64,000 bases of DNA from an uncultured Gammaproteobacteria bacterium (GCA_964648865.1 CAZYLV010000001.1:18476-82475), one strand, 5' to 3'. Counted from the first letter of the stretch, positions 377-60,505 are shown. Notes: generated by a model from the letters alone, not told the origin. Translations and numbers: made by a program.

Positions 377-1054
377 CTACTTGCCCGGAGCGACGAACAC
401 GAGGCGGTGCCCGGGATTCCAGCGATCGCTCGGCCCCGCATCGTCGCTGCCCAGCCACCGCCCGAAGCCGCCGCGCCCGACCCCGAACACGTTCGGGCAG
501 CCGTCGGAGTCGGTGATCGGTTCCATGCCGACCCAATACCAGTCGTCCTGGGGCTGGTCGGCGTCGGCGAGCCGCAGGTGGGGGCCGACCTCGGCCGGAC
601 AGAGGGTGAGACCGAACTTCCCCGCGCGCTGCCAGATGCTCTTCGTGGTCGCGCCCTTGCGGAAGCCGAGCTCCGCCACGGTGACGCGCACCAGGGCGAG
701 TTCGATGGACTCGGGGGACGTGGTGAACGCCTTCTTGCCCATCATGTCGCGCGCCCAGTCGCCGATCTTGAAGCCCTTCGACTCCATCTCGGCGATGAGC
801 GCCTCCTTGGACTTCCCCCCGATGGTGATCCGCTTCCAGACCTCGAAGGTCGGGGTAGGCGGCGCATCGCGGTACGGGTTGCCGCCGCGGGGCTCGCTGA
901 ACGCGACCTCGGGCACGCGGCCCTCGATGATGGCCTGCAGCCCGTCGAGCGCGGCGTCGACGTCGACCGAGCCCTCGCGCACCCGTCGGAACAGATCGTG
1001 CTGGCGCCGGGCCAGAATGCCCAGCTGCTCGTCGCTGACAACGTTCTTCGTCAT
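377..1054 (-). CDS. Hypothetical protein of about 225 aa (starts MTKNVVSDEQ...), no recognised domain.
   Basis: ORF with an AAAGGAGAGG SD 8 nt upstream of the ATG at 1054. It has a long structured leader and a consensus promoter upstream. Confidence 0.6.
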   Translation of the reverse strand: MTKNVVSDEQLGILARRQHDLFRRVREGSVDVDAALDGLQAIIEGRVPEVAFSEPRGGNPYRDAPPTPTFEVWKRITIGGKSKEALIAEMESKGFKIGDWARDMMGKKAFTTSPESIELALVRVTVAELGFRKGATTKSIWQRAGKFGLTLCPAEVGPHLRLADADQPQDDWYWVGMEPITDSDGCPNVFGVGRGGFGRWLGSDDAGPSDRWNPGHRLVFVAPGK

Positions 1055-1245
1055 GACAAACACCTCTCCTTTCGACTGCCGTTGGGCGTCTTGACGCAGG
1101 GAAACGCCCCTGCGTCCGGACACTCGTTGAAAACGGCATCTTGTCGTTCTGGATCCCCGCTTCCGCGGGGATGACAACTGCAAGATGCCGCTTTCAACCT
1201 GTGGCGAGCTACGTCGAACCACGGTGCGGGGTTCTAAAGAACAAC
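1055..1245 (-). ncRNA. Structured 5' leader: a candidate cis-regulatory RNA (riboswitch or attenuator) for the gene at 377-1054.
   Basis: Minus-strand RNA contains GGTTC...GAACC. An 18-bp stem (GTTGAAAGCGGCATCTTG / CAAGATGCCGTTTTCAAC) encloses CCCCGC-GGAA-GCGGGG. A GACGCAGGG-gcgtttc-CCTGCGTC hairpin lies just before the SD. Confidence 0.35.
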
Positions 1246-1250
1246 GAACC

Positions 1251-1279
1251 AATATAGCGGAATTAGCTGATTTTGTCAA
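1251..1279 (-). promoter_or_regulatory. Sigma70-type promoter: TTGACA, 17-nt spacer, TATATT.
   Basis: Minus strand reads TTGACAaaatcagctaattccgcTATATT. The -35 box overlaps the queA stop codon. Confidence 0.55.
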
Positions 1280-2310
1280 GAGTTCGTATCATGTCTACGC
1301 ATGATGAACATGGCGTCGCCGAAGGAGTAGAAGCGATACCTCTTTCTGATGGCCGCGGCGTAGGCCTGGAACACGAAGGTACGGCCGGCGAAAGCCGAGA
1401 CCAGCGCGAGCAACGTCGAGCGCGGCAGGTGGAAGTTGGTGATGAGCGCGTCGACGGCACGAAAGCGGTAGCCGGGGGTGATGAACATGCCGATCCACCC
1501 GGCCTTCTTGCCGCCAAGCCCTTCGAGACAGCGCACCGTCGTCGTGCCCACGGCGACGACGCGCCCGCCGCGCTTCCTCGTCTCGGCGATGGCCCGGCGC
1601 GTCGCGGCGGGGATCTCGCCCCACTCCTCGTGCATCTCGTGCGCCTCGAGCGTCGCCGCCGTCACCGGCCGGAAGGTGCCGAGCCCCACGTGGAGCGTCA
1701 CCGAGGCGAAGCGGACGCCCTGCCTCTTGAGGCGGGAGATGAGCCGCGGCGTGAAGTGGAAGCCGGCCGTCGGCGCGGCCACGCTCCCCCGCCGTTTGGC
1801 GTAGACCGTCTGGTAGTCGGCCAAGGTCTTGGGCGCACGGCCGACGTAGGGCGGCACCGGGATGGCGCCATGGCGGTCGGCGAAGGCCATCATGTCGGCG
1901 GCCGAGAGCGGCGCATGGAGCACCGCCGTGCCGTCGGCGTGCTTGCGCAGCACCGTGAACGGCACCCGCGCCACCGTGAGCCCGTCGCCTTCCTTCACCT
2001 TCTTGCCGGGCTTGAGCAGGCAGGCCCAATCGCTCGAGCCGGTGCGCTCCGCGACCGGACGCAGCAGGAACACCTCGACGTTGCCGCCCGTCGCGCGACG
2101 CGCCGGGAGCCGCGCCTTGAAGACCTTGCTGTCGTTGACCACGAGCAGGTCGCCCGGACGCAGGTATTCCCCGACCTCGAAGAACCGTCGGTGCGCCATG
2201 GTCCGGGCGAGGGGGTCGAGCACGAGCAGCCGGGAGCGGTCCCGCGGCCGGACGGGCCGCTGGGCGATGCGCTCCGGGGGCAGGCGATAGTCGAAGAGCG
2301 CGGTTTTCAT
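1276..2310 (-). CDS. queA: S-adenosylmethionine:tRNA ribosyltransferase-isomerase.
   Basis: Translation [20 protein letters not shown]...VNDSKV...FHFT is QueA-like. The likely start is the Met at 2310 within ORF 1276-2346. Confidence 0.9.
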
Positions 2311-2730: not shown

Positions 2731-3812
<1,082 letters not shown>

Positions 3813-3816
<4 letters not shown>

Positions 3817-4229
3817 CCCCACCTATGGCCGAACTCTTCCGTAAACCGCAGGAGTACATCGAAGAGATGGAGCGTCGTGATCCGAAGGAGCTGCATCCGA
3901 TGCTGCCCGAGGGCATGCGCAGCGCCTACCGCGAGCTTGCCGAAAAGCACCTCCTGCTGGAGCAGCGGTTGGACGGGCACGAGAAGCGCTACCACGAGTT
4001 GGCCAAGACCTACGCGCAGCTCGGCGAGGCGCTCGACATCCCGGAAGGTCCTGGACGCGAGGCCCTGCTCCAGAAGCTCGAGAGCCTCCAGGGCGCCGCA
4101 GACGATGCCCGCGCCGATTACGAGGAAGCCATGAGCGAACTGGACGTGGTCGGCGAGGCCCTGAACAAGCTGATCCGTGAGGGACGCGAGACGCTCAGGA
4201 GCATCACCTCCCGCGGCGGACAAGCATGA
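3813..4229 (+). CDS. Hypothetical acidic helical protein (138 aa) inserted between prfA and prmC.
   Basis: ATGA overlaps at both ends (3813-3816 and 4226-4229). Very high GC3 in this frame. Confidence 0.6.
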
Positions 4230-5176
4230 CCATCGGCGAGGCGCTGCGCAGACCCGGCATCGACCCGATCGATGCCGAGCTGCTGCTGGCCCACGCGCTC
4301 AAGAAGCCGCGCGAGTTCCTGCTCGCGCACCCCGAGGGACGCATCCGACCGGCGCAGCGGCGCCGGTTTCGCGCGTCCGTCGCACGCCGCAGGAAGCATG
4401 AACCGGTGGCTCTCATCATCGGCCACAAGCATTTTTACGACCTGACCCTCGCCGTGGCGCGCGGCGTGCTCGTCCCCCGCCCGGAGACGGAGCTGCTGAT
4501 CGATGCGGTCTTACAGCGGGCGGGTGACGCCGAAGGCGGGTTCCCTGCCGCGCGGACTGTGGAGCACGGCAGGGTGCCGCAGGCGGCAGGACCCGTCCGC
4601 GTGGACAGGACCCGCGCCGTGCGGCACCGCTTTGGCATGACGATCATCGATGTCGGCACGGGCTCCGGCGCCATCGCGCTCGCCCTGGCCAAGCACGTGC
4701 CGACGGCGCGCGTCGTGGCCACCGACCTCTCCCCTGCCGCGCTGCGCCTGGCCAAGAGGAACGCGCGCTCACTCGGCCTCGCCGGCCGCGTGCGCTTCCT
4801 CAAGGCCGACCTGCTGCCGGACAGGGGCGTGATGAATCACGCCCCAACGCTCATCGTCGCCAACCTTCCCTACCTGCCCACGGCCGTCTGGCGCAGCGCG
4901 CCGCCGGACGTCCGGCGCTACGAGCCGCGCAGCGCGCTCGACGGCGGCCGCGACGGGCTCGACGCCTATCGCGCGCTCTTCGCACGCATTGCCGAACAGG
5001 GCGTGATGGATCACGCCCCTACAACGATCATCATCGAGATCGACCCGACGCAAAAACGCCTCCTCCCGAAGGCGGTGAAGGCGTCCTTGCCTGATGCGCG
5101 CGTGGGGTTCCGCAAGGACCTGGCGGGACGCTGGCGCGTAGCCGTCATCGCTGCCCGCTCTCGGTCTCCTCGATAG
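4226..5176 (+). CDS. prmC: Release factor glutamine N5-methyltransferase (HemK/PrmC).
   Basis: SAM motif IIDVGTGSGAIALAL and NPPY-like motif VANLPYLP. It follows prfA. Confidence 0.85.
   Translation: MTIGEALRRPGIDPIDAELLLAHALKKPREFLLAHPEGRIRPAQRRRFRASVARRRKHEPVALIIGHKHFYDLTLAVARGVLVPRPETELLIDAVLQRAGDAEGGFPAARTVEHGRVPQAAGPVRVDRTRAVRHRFGMTIIDVGTGSGAIALALAKHVPTARVVATDLSPAALRLAKRNARSLGLAGRVRFLKADLLPDRGVMNHAPTLIVANLPYLPTAVWRSAPPDVRRYEPRSALDGGRDGLDAYRALFARIAEQGVMDHAPTTIIIEIDPTQKRLLPKAVKASLPDARVGFRKDLAGRWRVAVIAARSRSPR
4824..4845. repeat. Perfect 10-bp-stem palindrome (GGGGCGTGAT-ga-ATCACGCCCC) in frame inside prmC.
   Basis: Seen in the sequence. It encodes GVMNHAP. Confidence 0.7.
4998..5020. repeat. 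Second copy of the palindrome (GGGCGTGAT-gg-ATCACGCCC) in frame inside prmC.
   Basis: Seen in the sequence. It encodes GVMDHAP and the flanks resemble those of the first copy. Confidence 0.7.
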
Positions 5177-5612
5177 CCACCTTGCTGCGGTCCTCGGCGT
5201 CGTAGCGCACCCGGACCGTCTTGCCCGGCTGGAACTCCGGCAGGTAGACAGGATTGATGATCATCGTCGTTTCTGCCTCATAGGCCGCGCCATCCGCCGG
5301 ACGCACCTCCAGACGGATCTCCACCTGCGGCTGGTCGTTGAAGGTGCTGCCCGTGGGCTCGATGCCGAGGATGACGGCCTCGGCAGGAAGCCCGCGCTCG
5401 AGGAGTTGGGAGCGCTGGTACTCCGGCCAGAAGAACAGGAAGCCCGGGATGCCGATGCCGATCAGCAGGATGACGGCGGGGATGAGGAAGGACCAACGCC
5501 CGTTGGGCTTGGAGGATGGGGAAGCGGTCGGGACGGGCGTCGGGGTCGGCGTCGGCATGGGGGTCTGTTGCATATGCGCCATCATCGCAAAGACGCCGCG
5601 ATGTGGCAACAA
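5145..5612 (-). CDS. Hypothetical membrane-anchored protein: Pro/Thr-rich N-terminus, one TM helix, beta-rich C-terminal domain.
   Basis: ORF with a TM segment FLIPAVILLIGIGIPGFLFFW. Convergent overlap with the prmC 3' end. Confidence 0.5.
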   Translation of the reverse strand: MLPHRGVFAMMAHMQQTPMPTPTPTPVPTASPSSKPNGRWSFLIPAVILLIGIGIPGFLFFWPEYQRSQLLERGLPAEAVILGIEPTGSTFNDQPQVEIRLEVRPADGAAYEAETTMIINPVYLPEFQPGKTVRVRYDAEDRSKVAIEETESGQR

Positions 5613-5633
5613 AAAACGAGGGCCCTGCCCCCG

Positions 5634-5774
5634 CTAGCGGCTCTCCGTGGACTTCCGGTCGATGTGCTTCTCGATCCGCTCGAGCTCGGCCTCGAGACGC
5701 GCGACGAACGCCGCCGCCTCGTCGCGGAGCCCGGAGCGCGCTTCCCTCAGGTTCCGGAGCTCCATGACGCTCAT
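5634..5774 (-). CDS. Small coiled-coil protein of about 46 aa (MSVMELRNLREARSGLRDEAAAFVARLEAELERIEKHIDRKSTESR).
   Basis: Near-100% G/C at codon third positions in this frame. It overlaps the end of the upstream gene. Below the ORF-track size cutoff. Confidence 0.35.
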   Translation of the reverse strand: MSVMELRNLREARSGLRDEAAAFVARLEAELERIEKHIDRKSTESR

Positions 5775-5823
5775 CCCGCGGAGGTCGTCGTCCGCATATT
5801 CCCTGTAGGCCACCGCGTCCTCC

Positions 5824-6915
5824 TCACTGCAGCTCCTTGCCGCCGGAACGCACGGGCATGCCGCGCGTCACCACTTCGATCCAGGTCGGCCCCGGAGCGA
5901 AGACCACTTCCTTACCATCGACATGCTCGAAGCGCAACCGGCTGCCGGCCGAAGCCTTCTTCCAGCGGACCTCGAGCAGCCGGCCGTCGCGCAGCACCCA
6001 GGCCGGACCCTGGCCGGTGGTGCGCAGGCGCAGCCGGCCGACCGCGTCGACCACCTCGGCATCGGTGCGCAGGACGACGACGTTGGCGGCGATGATGGGC
6101 GTGCCGTCCTTGTCCGAGTGCGGGTCGCGCGCCTGGATGCGGCGATACCCGCCGTCCTCGGGGAGCCAGCGCCACTCCACGCGATAGCTCGGCGCGGAGA
6201 ACTCGATGACCGCGCTCTGCGTCGAGGTCGTCCGCTCCCCCTCCGGCGCGGCGGAAAAACGCCAGGCCGGCGCGGTGGAGCTCGCCGACCAGCCGCGCTC
6301 CTCGCGCACGCCCTGGAGGAGCTCCAACGAAGTGTATGCGTTATGCGGCGCGTACCGGCGGGAAGAACGCCAGAAGGCCGTGGCGCCCCAGGCGAACTCG
6401 TCGATGTCGTTGATGTCGCGACGGGCGAGCTGGGAGAAGGCTTCGGGAGAACCGCCGACGTGGACGTAGTCGGCGCCCAGCTCCTCGGCCCAATCCAGGA
6501 AGTACGGACGGGCGCTGCGCACCGGACCGATCTCCGGCACGGTGCCGGTGGCGGAGAAGACCGCCAAGAAGCGCGTGATGCCGCCTTCGACCGGCGCCTC
6601 GAAGACCAGCCGCGCGGCGGCGAGGCCGGACGGCGGGCGCGAGTCGGTGTGGTTCTCGATCATGACCGCGAAGGGCCGCAGCGCGCCGCCGTCGCTCGGC
6701 GTGCCGTCGAGCCAATCGGTCCCCGCGGGCTCCGTCGGCTCCTCGACGACGGACGCCGACGGCGCGGGCTCCGTCGGCTTGGGCGCGAAGAGCACGATGC
6801 CGACGCTCGCGAGAAGCACCGTGAACGCGCCGGCGGCGACGGCGGCCGCGGCGATGGCCAGCCGCGGATTGGCCTTGGCCCAAGCGATGGCTTCTTCCTT
6901 CGTGGGGATGCGCAT
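5824..6915 (-). CDS. DUF3048-like (YerB-type) membrane-anchored protein.
   Basis: Starts MRIPTKEEAIAWAKANPRLAIAAAAVAAGAFTVLL (TM helix) followed by a large extracytoplasmic domain. The ORF track extends it spuriously upstream. Confidence 0.65.
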   Translation of the reverse strand: MRIPTKEEAIAWAKANPRLAIAAAAVAAGAFTVLLASVGIVLFAPKPTEPAPSASVVEEPTEPAGTDWLDGTPSDGGALRPFAVMIENHTDSRPPSGLAAARLVFEAPVEGGITRFLAVFSATGTVPEIGPVRSARPYFLDWAEELGADYVHVGGSPEAFSQLARRDINDIDEFAWGATAFWRSSRRYAPHNAYTSLELLQGVREERGWSASSTAPAWRFSAAPEGERTTSTQSAVIEFSAPSYRVEWRWLPEDGGYRRIQARDPHSDKDGTPIIAANVVVLRTDAEVVDAVGRLRLRTTGQGPAWVLRDGRLLEVRWKKASAGSRLRFEHVDGKEVVFAPGPTWIEVVTRGMPVRSGGKELQ

Positions 6916-9189: not shown

Positions 9190-12171
<2,982 letters not shown>

Positions 12172-14411: not shown

Positions 14412-15311
14412 ATGGCGAAAAAGAAGAAAGCAATGACCACGGCACCCGCAGCCCCCGCCCCGGCATCCAAGGGGCCGGACGGCAACGCCACCACCTACCT
14501 CATCGCCCTCGGCATCCTGCTGGCGCTCTTCGCCGGCACCGTCGTGCTGCTGCTCTCCACCCCCAAGGGCAAGGAGCTGCTCGGCCGCGCGCCTGCCCCG
14601 AGCGGCGTCGAGGGGCCGGCGGCAAACGCGCCGGCCATGGCCAACGGAAACGCCAACGTCCCGCCACCCGGGCCGGCGCTGAACGAGATGGGCTTGCCGG
14701 AAGGCGGGCGCGTCGAGCTCGTGGACACCTTGGACGCGGACGGCGTGATGGTCGTGGACCAGAAGGTGGTCTGGCGCTCCGAGAGCGGCGACATCACGCT
14801 CGTGGAGCATGCCTCGGACCTGTTGCCCGCGCTCAAGGAGGGCAGCAGCGCGCTCGGCATCGTCGGACGGCCGAGCGGCTCCACGCGCGTCATCTTCGCC
14901 TTCGGCTGCGCCGGCGGCTGCGATGCGCCCGGCCTGTACCGCCCTATGGCCTTCGATCCGGCGCTGCGCGCCTTCATCCCGCTCATCAACGCCCCGGACC
15001 ACTACATCGGCGCCGGCCAGCTCTCCCCCAACGAGCGGCGCATGTGGTTCACCGGTCCCAGCGACGACATCGAGCAGCGCGAGCTCTGGGTCTATGACTT
15101 CGTGAACGACAAGCAGACCCTGGCGATCCGCCTGCCGAACAGCGAGACGCTCACGGCCTACGAACCGGAGATCGGCCCCAAGGCGGTGACCATCCGCTGG
15201 GTCGACCCGACCCAGCTCGAGTACAAGGTCTACCGCGCCTCCGCCGCCGTCCCCAGCTACGAGCGGCCGCGGACGGAGATCGCCACCCGGACCGCCTCGG
15301 TCCCGCAATAA
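14412..15311 (+). CDS. Hypothetical membrane-anchored protein (299 aa) inserted between rplK and rplA.
   Basis: N-terminal TM helix (LIALGILLALFAGTVVLLL) and extracytoplasmic domain. Flanked by terminators. Confidence 0.6.
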   Translation: MAKKKKAMTTAPAAPAPASKGPDGNATTYLIALGILLALFAGTVVLLLSTPKGKELLGRAPAPSGVEGPAANAPAMANGNANVPPPGPALNEMGLPEGGRVELVDTLDADGVMVVDQKVVWRSESGDITLVEHASDLLPALKEGSSALGIVGRPSGSTRVIFAFGCAGGCDAPGLYRPMAFDPALRAFIPLINAPDHYIGAGQLSPNERRMWFTGPSDDIEQRELWVYDFVNDKQTLAIRLPNSETLTAYEPEIGPKAVTIRWVDPTQLEYKVYRASAAVPSYERPRTEIATRTASVPQ

Positions 15312-15329
15312 CCGATCACGATGTCCTGT

Positions 15330-15362
15330 AGGGGCGGGTTTCAAACCCGCCCCTACTTGATT
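15330..15362 (+). terminator. Rho-independent terminator (perfect palindrome AGGGGCGGGTTTcaAACCCGCCCCT).
   Basis: Seen in the sequence, then acttgattgttt. Confidence 0.55.
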
Positions 15363-29313: not shown

Positions 29314-29323
29314 TACGGTGCAG

Positions 29324-29351
29324 AAAACCCCCGGCACCTGCCGGGGGTTTT
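29324..29351. terminator. Bidirectional terminator between convergent genes.
   Basis: AAAACCCCCGG-cacctg-CCGGGGGTTTT. Confidence 0.55.
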
Positions 29352-29359
29352 CTGTCCGT

Positions 29360-60467: not shown

Positions 60468-60505
60468 TGAAAAGACGTCCACGTCCGTGGACGTCTTTTC
60501 TGTCT
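60468..60505. terminator. Bidirectional terminator.
   Basis: GAAAAGACGTCCACG-tcc-GTGGACGTCTTTTC. Confidence 0.6.

Follow-up and report, generated by a model that had tools for sequence, protein, structure and literature searches.

The DNA analyzed here is a 64,000-nucleotide stretch from a metagenome-assembled genome (MAG) of an uncultured bacterium (GCA_964648865.1, CAZYLV010000001.1:18476-82475), called the window below. Its host is a 69% GC "Patescibacteria group" bacterium. Within the window, the gene prmC, which encodes the release-factor glutamine N5-methyltransferase PrmC, contains two short palindromes in frame. Judged by sequence, both are copies of a GTAG-tagged repetitive extragenic palindrome (REP), a unit of about 26 nt that would be a substrate for RayT-type enzymes. 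In the reading we favor, to which we give a probability of about 0.8, GTAG REP copies landed in, or replaced earlier copies in, two PrmC loops as tolerated passengers. REPs are short DNA hairpins that spread as non-autonomous elements, and in the systems studied, Y1/HUH transposases (RayT, also called TnpA-REP) recognize, cut, and rejoin them as single-stranded DNA (ssDNA).

Two in-frame palindromes in prmC

The first palindrome (GGGGCGTGAT-GA-ATCACGCCCC, 4824 to 4845) has 10-nt arms around a 2-nt center, and the second (GGGCGTGAT-GG-ATCACGCCC, 4999 to 5018) has 9-nt arms, also around a 2-nt center. Read on the minus strand, copy 1 is GTTG-GGGCGTGAT-TC-ATCACGCCCC-TG, with a degenerate head (GTTG for GTAG; CAAC at 4845 to 4848), and copy 2 is GTAG-GGGCGTGAT-CC-ATCACGCCC-TG, with an intact GTAG head (CTAC at 5019 to 5022). 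Copy 1 encodes residues G201 to T208 (GVMNHAPT) and copy 2 encodes residues G259 to T266 (GVMDHAPT), with a spacing in register of 174 nt, or 58 codons. Flanking sequences are shared as well, TGCCGnACA upstream and CCCC(A/T)AC downstream. An initial annotation of the window had described perfect palindromes within prmC, with similar flanks, each encoding G-V-M-(N/D)-H-A-P-T in frame, the first lying just before an NPPY-like motif. Reading the sequence bore this out: the likeness extends beyond the palindrome on both sides, and copy 1 ends four residues short of the catalytic N213-L-P-Y216. The annotation also placed the first palindrome correctly, and its end for the second, 5019, had to be moved to 5018, as the C at 5019 already belongs to the CTAC tag.

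The two palindromes are a real feature that chance falls far short of explaining. The core GGCGTGATNNATCACGCC, when as many as 2 mismatches are allowed, has exactly 2 sites in 64 kb versus 0.02 expected, and none of 100 shuffles reached 2. Folding as ssDNA gave −11.6 kcal/mol for copy 1 and −9.6 kcal/mol for copy 2 (z = −3.9 and −2.8), and an arm of one copy pairs with the other copy at 91% complementarity. The two copies are also direct repeats that bracket the catalytic NLPY, and recombination between them would produce an in-frame deletion of the active site.

A GTAG-tagged REP found in many phyla

The consensus of the element on the minus strand of the window is 5'-GTAG GGGCGTGAT TY ATCACGCCC TG-3'. 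Scanning one genome per species (GTDB representatives) for the 20-mer GGGCGTGATNNATCACGCCC located it in at least 120 genome stretches from many phyla, mostly outside long open reading frames (ORFs). Among the matches listed, to which the host names and counts in this paragraph refer, it is present in Chloroflexota (Ktedonobacteria, Herpetosiphon, Chloroflexia, and Anaerolineales), delta-proteobacteria, Geobacter, and Gallionella, as well as Armatimonadota, Nitrospirota, Gemmatimonadota, Rhodothermales, Vampirovibrionales, Omnitrophota, Roizmanbacteria, and others. GTAG stands exactly against one stem end in 123 of 147 sites. The loop of these 123 tagged sites is TC in 54 and TT in 39, or one of the two in 93, and the far side of the stem, oriented by the GTAG head, usually continues with TG. 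Copy 1 in prmC has the commonest of these loops, TC. Elsewhere, copies are often clustered 44 to 97 nt apart beside a sister unit, GGGCGCAAT..ATTGCGCCC. In loci below 56% GC, 60 of 69 sites lie outside any ORF of at least 150 amino acids, with the other 9 inside.

Many clustered copies occur in the Ktedonobacteraceae MAG H111_94. Its tandem arrays (L077 4063 to 4226, L066 6554 to 6751, L087 7163 to 7412, and L095 89 to 346) have periods of 72, 89, 57 to 58, and 97 nt with repeated flanks, and resemble the large GTAG-23 clusters of Chloroflexi.

As members of this class, both prmC copies are short GC-rich palindromes in the 20- to 40-nt range of REP stem-loops, and both are located inside a gene instead of in extragenic DNA. 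The sole other GTAG REP in the window, making three in 64 kb, is a related, B-like, double-headed unit that begins 17 nt past the stop of an ORF at 14412 to 15311 and lies upstream of rplA (Table 1). Because this copy is extragenic, ordinary extragenic REPs exist in this genome too. Counting GTAGGGGC / GCCCCTAC in the window gave 3 occurrences versus 1.3 expected, and the genome is not REP-rich. A literature string search for GTAGGGGCG returned unrelated primer matches only, and a literature search on in-frame palindromic elements in Patescibacteria returned nothing relevant.

Presence, absence, and replacement in prmC orthologs

To place the copies in a lineage, the window gene and its eleven closest homologs (56 to 67% identity), from related Patescibacteria, were aligned by codon. 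Site 1, the loop holding copy 1, lies between ADLLP and IVANLPY, before NLPY, and site 2 is the loop before beta-5. Across these 12 orthologs, site 1 holds four different REP variants (Table 1), every one oriented alike, with CTAC lying 3' on the coding strand. Translation of this CCCCTAC end uses three different frames, which give A-P-T, P-L-Q, and R-P-Y, so the variants are not interconvertible by substitutions alone. Site 2 carries REP-A, the variant of the window copies, in 3 of 12 genes (window, P0004, and P0005); the loop is shorter by 12 nt in the remaining nine, and every more distant homolog has a shorter one too. Carriers are not monophyletic on a distance tree, and the close pair P0007 and P0008 (84% identical) differ in their site 1 variant. 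The variants labeled B and D, both GTAG-headed, are also found in unrelated REP-rich genomes (L012, L014, L032, L013, and L099).

This patchy distribution, together with the exchange of one REP variant for another at a single site, favors insertion over descent from ancestral conserved residues. Pairwise comparison of third-codon positions found identity in 32 of 38 cases within the REP versus about 58% in the rest of the gene, which is modest support for DNA-level conservation or recent arrival. The initial annotation had called these regions compact in other species. This is so at site 2, which is 4 residues longer than in 9 of 12 close orthologs and 6 longer than in Thermotoga maritima HemK. 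For site 1 it holds in part, the loop being 5 to 7 residues longer than in REP-free orthologs and equal in length to that of T. maritima HemK. The annotation had also suggested that coding sequence here tolerates a small palindromic element that is mobile or recombinogenic, to be judged by aligning orthologs and by searching for the palindrome elsewhere. Both lines of evidence support that proposal: the alignment revealed presence, absence, and replacement with no conserved ancestral residues, and the palindrome recurs across phyla while being rare in the window.

Table 1. Coordinates of prmC and its hairpin elements in the window, and occupancy of site 1 in the 12 aligned prmC genes
Feature	Window position	Strand	Basis	Genes
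prmC (release-factor glutamine N5-methyltransferase), 316 amino acids, 951 nt	4226-5176	+	Pfam, predicted fold	
REP copy 1	4822-4848	-	Sequence reading, palindrome 4824-4845, ssDNA folding	
REP copy 2	4997-5022	-	Sequence reading, palindrome 4999-5018, ssDNA folding	
Third in-frame hairpin, different family: GCGGGTGAC ... CCG-CGCGGA-n-GAGCA-CGG ... GGCAGGACCCGT	4514-4602	+	Inverted repeat, covariance model	
Extragenic double-headed REP: GTAG-GGGCGGGTTT-C-AAACCCGCCC-CTAC (GTAGGGGCGGGTTTCAAACCCGCCCCTAC)	15328-15356	.	Folding −16.6 kcal/mol, z = −7.9	
Site 1: REP-A				Window, P0003, P0008
Site 1: GGGGCGGG-AAAA-CCCGCCCCTAC				P0005, P0006, P0007
Site 1: GCGGAC-ACGCCG-GTCCGCCCCTAC				P0010
Site 1: GGGCGAAC-GCAAG-GTTCGCCCCTAC				P0012
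Site 1: degenerate REP relic				P0004
Site 1: shorter loop, no recognizable REP				P0002, P0011, probably P0009

Probable tolerance of the insertions by the protein

The host gene was identified by its domains and its predicted fold. Pfam assigned PrmC_N (1.5e-14) plus methyltransferase domains to the ORF, an AF2 model had a predicted local distance difference test (pLDDT) score of 84.8, and the top Foldseek matches of this model were the PrmC/HemK structures 2b3t, 1t43, and 1nv8, with target template modeling (TM) scores of 0.82 to 0.85. The catalytic motif at 4862 to 4873 is NLPY instead of the canonical NPPY in 19 of 19 aligned Patescibacteria PrmC sequences, and NPPY in a Chloroflexi outgroup. 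Because NLPY is common to all 19, it is a lineage trait and not damage.

In the AF2 model, the fold is predicted to be intact with the REP segments in place. The residues of copy 1 fall between the strands at 189 to 193 and 209 to 212, which is the beta-3/beta-4 loop, and those of copy 2 between the helix at 246 to 257 and the strand at 267 to 271 (beta-5), with local pLDDT at both segments of about 80 to 88. The initial annotation had asked whether the inserts are surface loops; in the model, both are in loops between secondary-structure elements. In Rossmann-type methyltransferases, the cofactor and substrate sites are at the C-terminal ends of the parallel strands. The loops entering strands 4 and 5, where both REP sites fall, are presumably at the opposite edge from the active site. 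The REP segments are probably neutral for PrmC function.

The element can be read through without interruption in three of its six frames, and prmC is not the only gene in which it is translated in this way. In unrelated genomes, the same REP occurs in the same frame, in a Roizmanbacteria MAG (L068 3504), where it encodes TGVINHAPT in a 208-amino-acid ORF that is ComEA-like by sequence, and at L052 4128, where it encodes QGVMNHAPT in a 1679-amino-acid ORF.

Association of the REP with a RayT transposase

One of the genomic matches, L117, carries the REP inside a 201-amino-acid ORF (819 to 1421, minus strand) that passes the Pfam Y1_Tnp threshold. Homologs of this ORF are named "REP element-mobilizing transposase RayT" or "REP-associated tyrosine transposase" in several sources, and they include two from Patescibacteria (P0156 and P0163, Roizmanbacteria). 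Immediately past the HUH motif (MPNHIH), an alignment of 18 members of the RayT family is hypervariable, and this stretch is filled with REP translations, among them CRGVIYHAQ, GRGNRAPT, GGKTPPLQ, AGLKPAPT, and GLINQTPT. A search with an HUH...Y regular expression recovered one RayT, that of L117 only. When 120 RayT homologs were compared with the window and the loci of its relatives by tblastn, the matches were weak, and several of them were to the REP-coded peptides of prmC.

A third hairpin in prmC and its family

A further in-frame hairpin, of a different family (Table 1), brings the number of such elements within the 951 nt of prmC to three. It is an 89-nt imperfect palindrome that encodes approximately residues 97 to 126, and it codes for most of a segment, residues 104 to 134, that is predicted to be disordered (pLDDT below 50). 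Directly after it, at 4606 to 4615 in the 4603 to 4628 region, its 3' end is repeated in part (CAGGACCCGC). A covariance model matched the element with 76.1 bits (E = 1e-13).

The element is absent or shortened in 8 of the 12 orthologs, and relatives of it are found at the same site in P0002, P0006, and P0010. In P0012 (L128), a left-end remnant, GCCGCGGGTGACGCGGCG, remains at the usual site (10304 to 10321) and a full copy is found 90 nt downstream (10388 to 10477), between helix A and strand 2, which suggests movement or duplication within the gene.

Outside this lineage, the family signature GCGGGTGAC-N40-65-GGCAGGACCCGC was found at no fewer than 120 loci in a metagenome scan, with GC fractions of 0.34 to 0.74; these and the following family counts are from among the matches listed. 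Members are 60 to 90 nt long, and of 115 distinct sequences about 102 form a single long hairpin. The base helix is conserved and runs into covarying flanks, and the interior is often CCG-CGCGCA-n-GAGCA-CGG. In the alignment, 94.6% of cells are paired versus 42 to 46% when the partner column is slid, 437 cells have changed on both sides, and the covariation score is 0.51 versus 0.13 for shuffles. In these metagenomic loci, the covariance model identified additional copies as well as inverted pairs, and in the window and its relatives only the prmC copies. In low-GC loci, 23 of 76 copies are inside ORFs of at least 150 amino acids, in both orientations. By sequence inspection, host ORFs include a P-type ATPase, DNA polymerase I (PolA), a glycosyltransferase, and TatD, and in eleven high-GC loci the element is in the linker of a lipoyl-domain acyltransferase (E2-like, likewise by inspection).

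Rfam searches matched this family to no curated covariance model. At the gathering score, Rfam identified three tRNAs only in the window and nothing in nineteen loci with members of the family, and in six loci there was no Rfam match at E ≤ 1. Regular-expression searches and all-against-all ORF clustering revealed no recurrent transposase near the copies, and a literature string search for GGCAGGACCCGC returned unrelated primer matches only. Signal recognition particle (SRP) RNA, ZTP and guanidine-III riboswitches, k-turns, integron attC sites, and tRNA-like structures were each weighed as identities of the third element and set aside, on sequence grounds or for want of an Rfam match. The family is apparently uncatalogued and is the more promising lead.

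The prmC neighborhood

Upstream of prmC is prfA (2731 to 3816). Between them, an ORF of 138 amino acids without a Pfam domain (3813 to 4229) overlaps each neighbor by 4 nt; its position is kept in most relatives (132 to 141 amino acids), and it has no counterpart in L125 and L126, the P0005 loci, in which prfA directly adjoins prmC. Comparison with orthologs, which covered the neighboring genes for queuosine synthase, prfA, DUF3048, L25, and FtsW, revealed no palindromic in-frame insertion in these five. Elsewhere in the window, long perfect palindromes with A/T-rich flanks at 29321 to 29354 (CAGAAAACCCCCGGCA..TGCCGGGGGTTTTCTG) and at 60469 to 60500 (GAAAAGACGTCCACG..CGTGGACGTCTTTTC), the latter just past a tRNA gene, look like bidirectional terminators.

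How the copies may have reached prmC

In the history we propose, a RayT-type enzyme would mobilize the GTAG REP as an ssDNA hairpin, and in this Patescibacteria lineage REP copies would enter, or displace older copies in, the loops upstream of beta-4 and beta-5. In the orientation and frame used, each REP would add or replace eight codons, GVM[N/D]HAPT, and the gene would stay open. The REP would then most likely be a tolerated passenger that "decorates" the protein and not a functional motif. We infer that RayT was responsible for mobilization at this locus and that each copy arrived by insertion or by conversion. Exchange of one REP for another in place could proceed through RayT cleavage and strand transfer at GTAG, or through conversion from other REPs.

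Several observations weigh against this history. The head of copy 1 is GTTG and not GTAG, and GTTG is not among the degenerate heads (GYAG, GYRG, GTRG, and GTMG) given in the 2013 survey of GTAG REPs (PMC3733652). The CC loop of copy 2 is found in none of the 123 tagged sites among the matches listed. REPs are by definition abundant and extragenic, and the window has two copies inside a gene and one related extragenic REP. In about 113 kb from relatives there are few GTAG-GGGCG elements, and the prmC copies account for most of these. Neither a regular-expression search nor tblastn with the RayT homologs found a RayT gene in the 64-kb window, which is a small part of the host genome, or in the 113 kb from relatives, so active mobilization in this genome is putative. 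Finally, the same loop is occupied repeatedly in many lineages, unlike the prediction for random insertion, and therefore site preference, in-place replacement, or selection is needed. For one loop with different variants, all in one orientation, random insertion is a poorer explanation than replacement where a REP already stood or a strong local preference for the target. A broader proposal combines two ideas, that at least four GTAG-REP variants succeeded one another at site 1, which would record in-place exchange, and that the family of the 4514 to 4602 hairpin is an undescribed cross-phylum inserting element; we put this combination forward as tentative.

Other origins for the two copies must also be weighed against insertion or replacement by a mobile REP. 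One copy could have been imported and the other made within prmC, the two loops having undergone ectopic gene conversion or slipped recombination with each other. The window copies do share the TGCCGnACA upstream sequence, frame, and orientation beyond the REP consensus, and their arms pair with each other as described above, but in P0004 and P0005 REP-A is at site 2 and the REP at site 1 is degenerate or of another variant, and P0003 and P0008 have REP-A at site 1 only. Part of the flank similarity arises because the left flank CA(G) belongs to the cross-phylum consensus (the ...CCC-TG tail), and since each site holds REP-A alone in other lineages, intragenic conversion could have occurred yet is not needed; we regard it as unlikely. 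It is more doubtful that the hairpins are kept for a function, whether as RNA structures in prmC mRNA that affect its stability or make ribosomes pause ahead of beta-4 and beta-5, as a DNA site for gyrase, IHF, or a RayT-like protein, or through the peptide. Such a role would fit the presence of a GC-rich hairpin at site 1 in 9 of 12 orthologs despite differing sequence, the higher conservation of synonymous positions in the REP than in the rest of prmC, and the parts in mRNA stabilization, termination, and supercoiling reported for REPs elsewhere (PMC3733652). It would not fit the intact genes that have no recognizable REP at site 1 (at least two orthologs, probably three) or at site 2 (nine), and a regulatory hairpin is not favored because these orthologs stay intact without the element. 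The coded peptides, moreover, are wholly different between variants (GVMNHAPT, GGKTPPLQ, and ERKVRPYT), and more distant homologs have unrelated loops.

Two simpler explanations are contradicted by the data. If the motif were an ancestral, functionally conserved PrmC peptide with coincidental palindromy, its reading frame and its place near the catalytic NLPY would be accounted for, but it is patchy in close orthologs and absent from distant ones, and the identical GTAG-tagged DNA is found in unrelated phyla, with 60 of 69 sites in loci below 56% GC outside ORFs of at least 150 amino acids among the matches listed; we consider this highly improbable. An assembly or chimera artifact might be suspected in a metagenome-assembled genome. 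However, a Logan assembly of SRR34646255 is 100% identical over 2,906 nt (window 3716 to 6621), which demonstrates reproducibility with a second assembler and not necessarily an independent sample, as SRR34646255 may be the read set behind the genome, and REPs are found at the same codons in eight other independently assembled relatives. An artifact is therefore scarcely credible. The favored reading remains that mobile GTAG REP copies came to occupy these two loops and are tolerated there.

Relation to known palindromic elements

Intragenic GTAG REPs were already catalogued by Di Nocera, De Gregorio, and Rocco (BMC Genomics 14:522, 2013; PMC3733652), and the prmC insertions are therefore of a known kind. 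That paper describes 24 REP families and gives as traits of GTAG REPs stems of 6 to 13 bp, a terminal GTAG, TY loops, dimers and clusters, and families shared by distant organisms. Its intragenic examples include, in the supplement, the peptides GTASPCPY and DEAALRPY in Chloroflexus and, in Opitutus terrae, copies within a methyltransferase and within a release factor 3, and it treats Rickettsia RPE-4 and RPE-6 as CGTC-tagged REPs. The family to which the prmC copies belong resembles the GTAG REPs described there in consisting of short GC-rich stem-loops with a terminal GTAG and a 2-nt TY loop, in having several variants within a genome, and in occurring in distant phyla, and it resembles the intragenic cases in that some copies are in frame in known genes, with 7 to 8 residues per single unit. 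The prmC elements differ from the cases given there in their host, a reduced Patescibacteria with very few REPs, and the GGGCGTGAT stem is assigned to the class by its traits. They differ also in the combination of two REPs and a third, unrelated hairpin in one 951-nt gene, and in the four variants at the same loop in sister lineages, with no cognate RayT in the DNA sampled. What is new here is the reduced Patescibacteria host, the three hairpin elements in 951 nt, and the variant series at one codon position.

Perfect palindromes preceded by GTAG form the second REP group of Corneloup (2021, PMC8266576), and the element described here shares this form with RayT/TnpA-REP "REPtron" systems (Nunvar 2010, PMC2817692; PMC8266576). 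As in REPtrons, the same REP is physically associated with a RayT homolog, that of L117. Unlike in REPtrons, the L117 REP is inside the RayT ORF and does not flank it, and no RayT was found in the window.

The initial annotation had compared the insertions with Rickettsia palindromic elements (RPEs; Ogata et al. 2000, as cited in PMC3733652). The comparison is apt for in-frame palindromic repeats in likely functional protein genes of a reduced genome, and it fails for the family, which is that of GTAG REPs: the prmC element is 26 nt long, GTAG-tagged, and cross-phylum, and descriptions of RPEs, known from Rickettsia, set it apart. By size, the element at 4514 to 4602 is more RPE-like than the prmC REPs are. 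RPE-1, for example, is a longer palindromic insertion of about 100 to 150 nt. A MITE (miniature inverted-repeat transposable element), with the terminal inverted repeats of an insertion sequence, a target-site duplication, and a length of 70 to 300 nt, was also considered for the REP copies and rejected, as the element is 26 nt long and has no duplicated flank in the aligned copies.

Implications

Intragenic REPs are rare natural experiments. REPs are abundant, and to our knowledge how they spread in vivo is not known. Here, sister lineages differ in the REP variant that one loop of an essential single-copy gene carries, and at least two others have a short loop free of REPs; this fixed address gives dated events of gain, loss, and replacement that can be used to distinguish insertion from in-place exchange. 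In-place REP exchange, if true, would bear directly on the question of REP spread. For annotation, GVMNHAPT, GGKTPPLQ, and RPY in these genomes are to be read as repeat-derived peptides and not as functional motifs. If the third hairpin does represent a cross-phylum class that inserts in frame, RPE-like "protein decoration" would be a general phenomenon and not a Rickettsia oddity. The very small, repeat-poor genomes of Patescibacteria still gather such elements inside their proteins.

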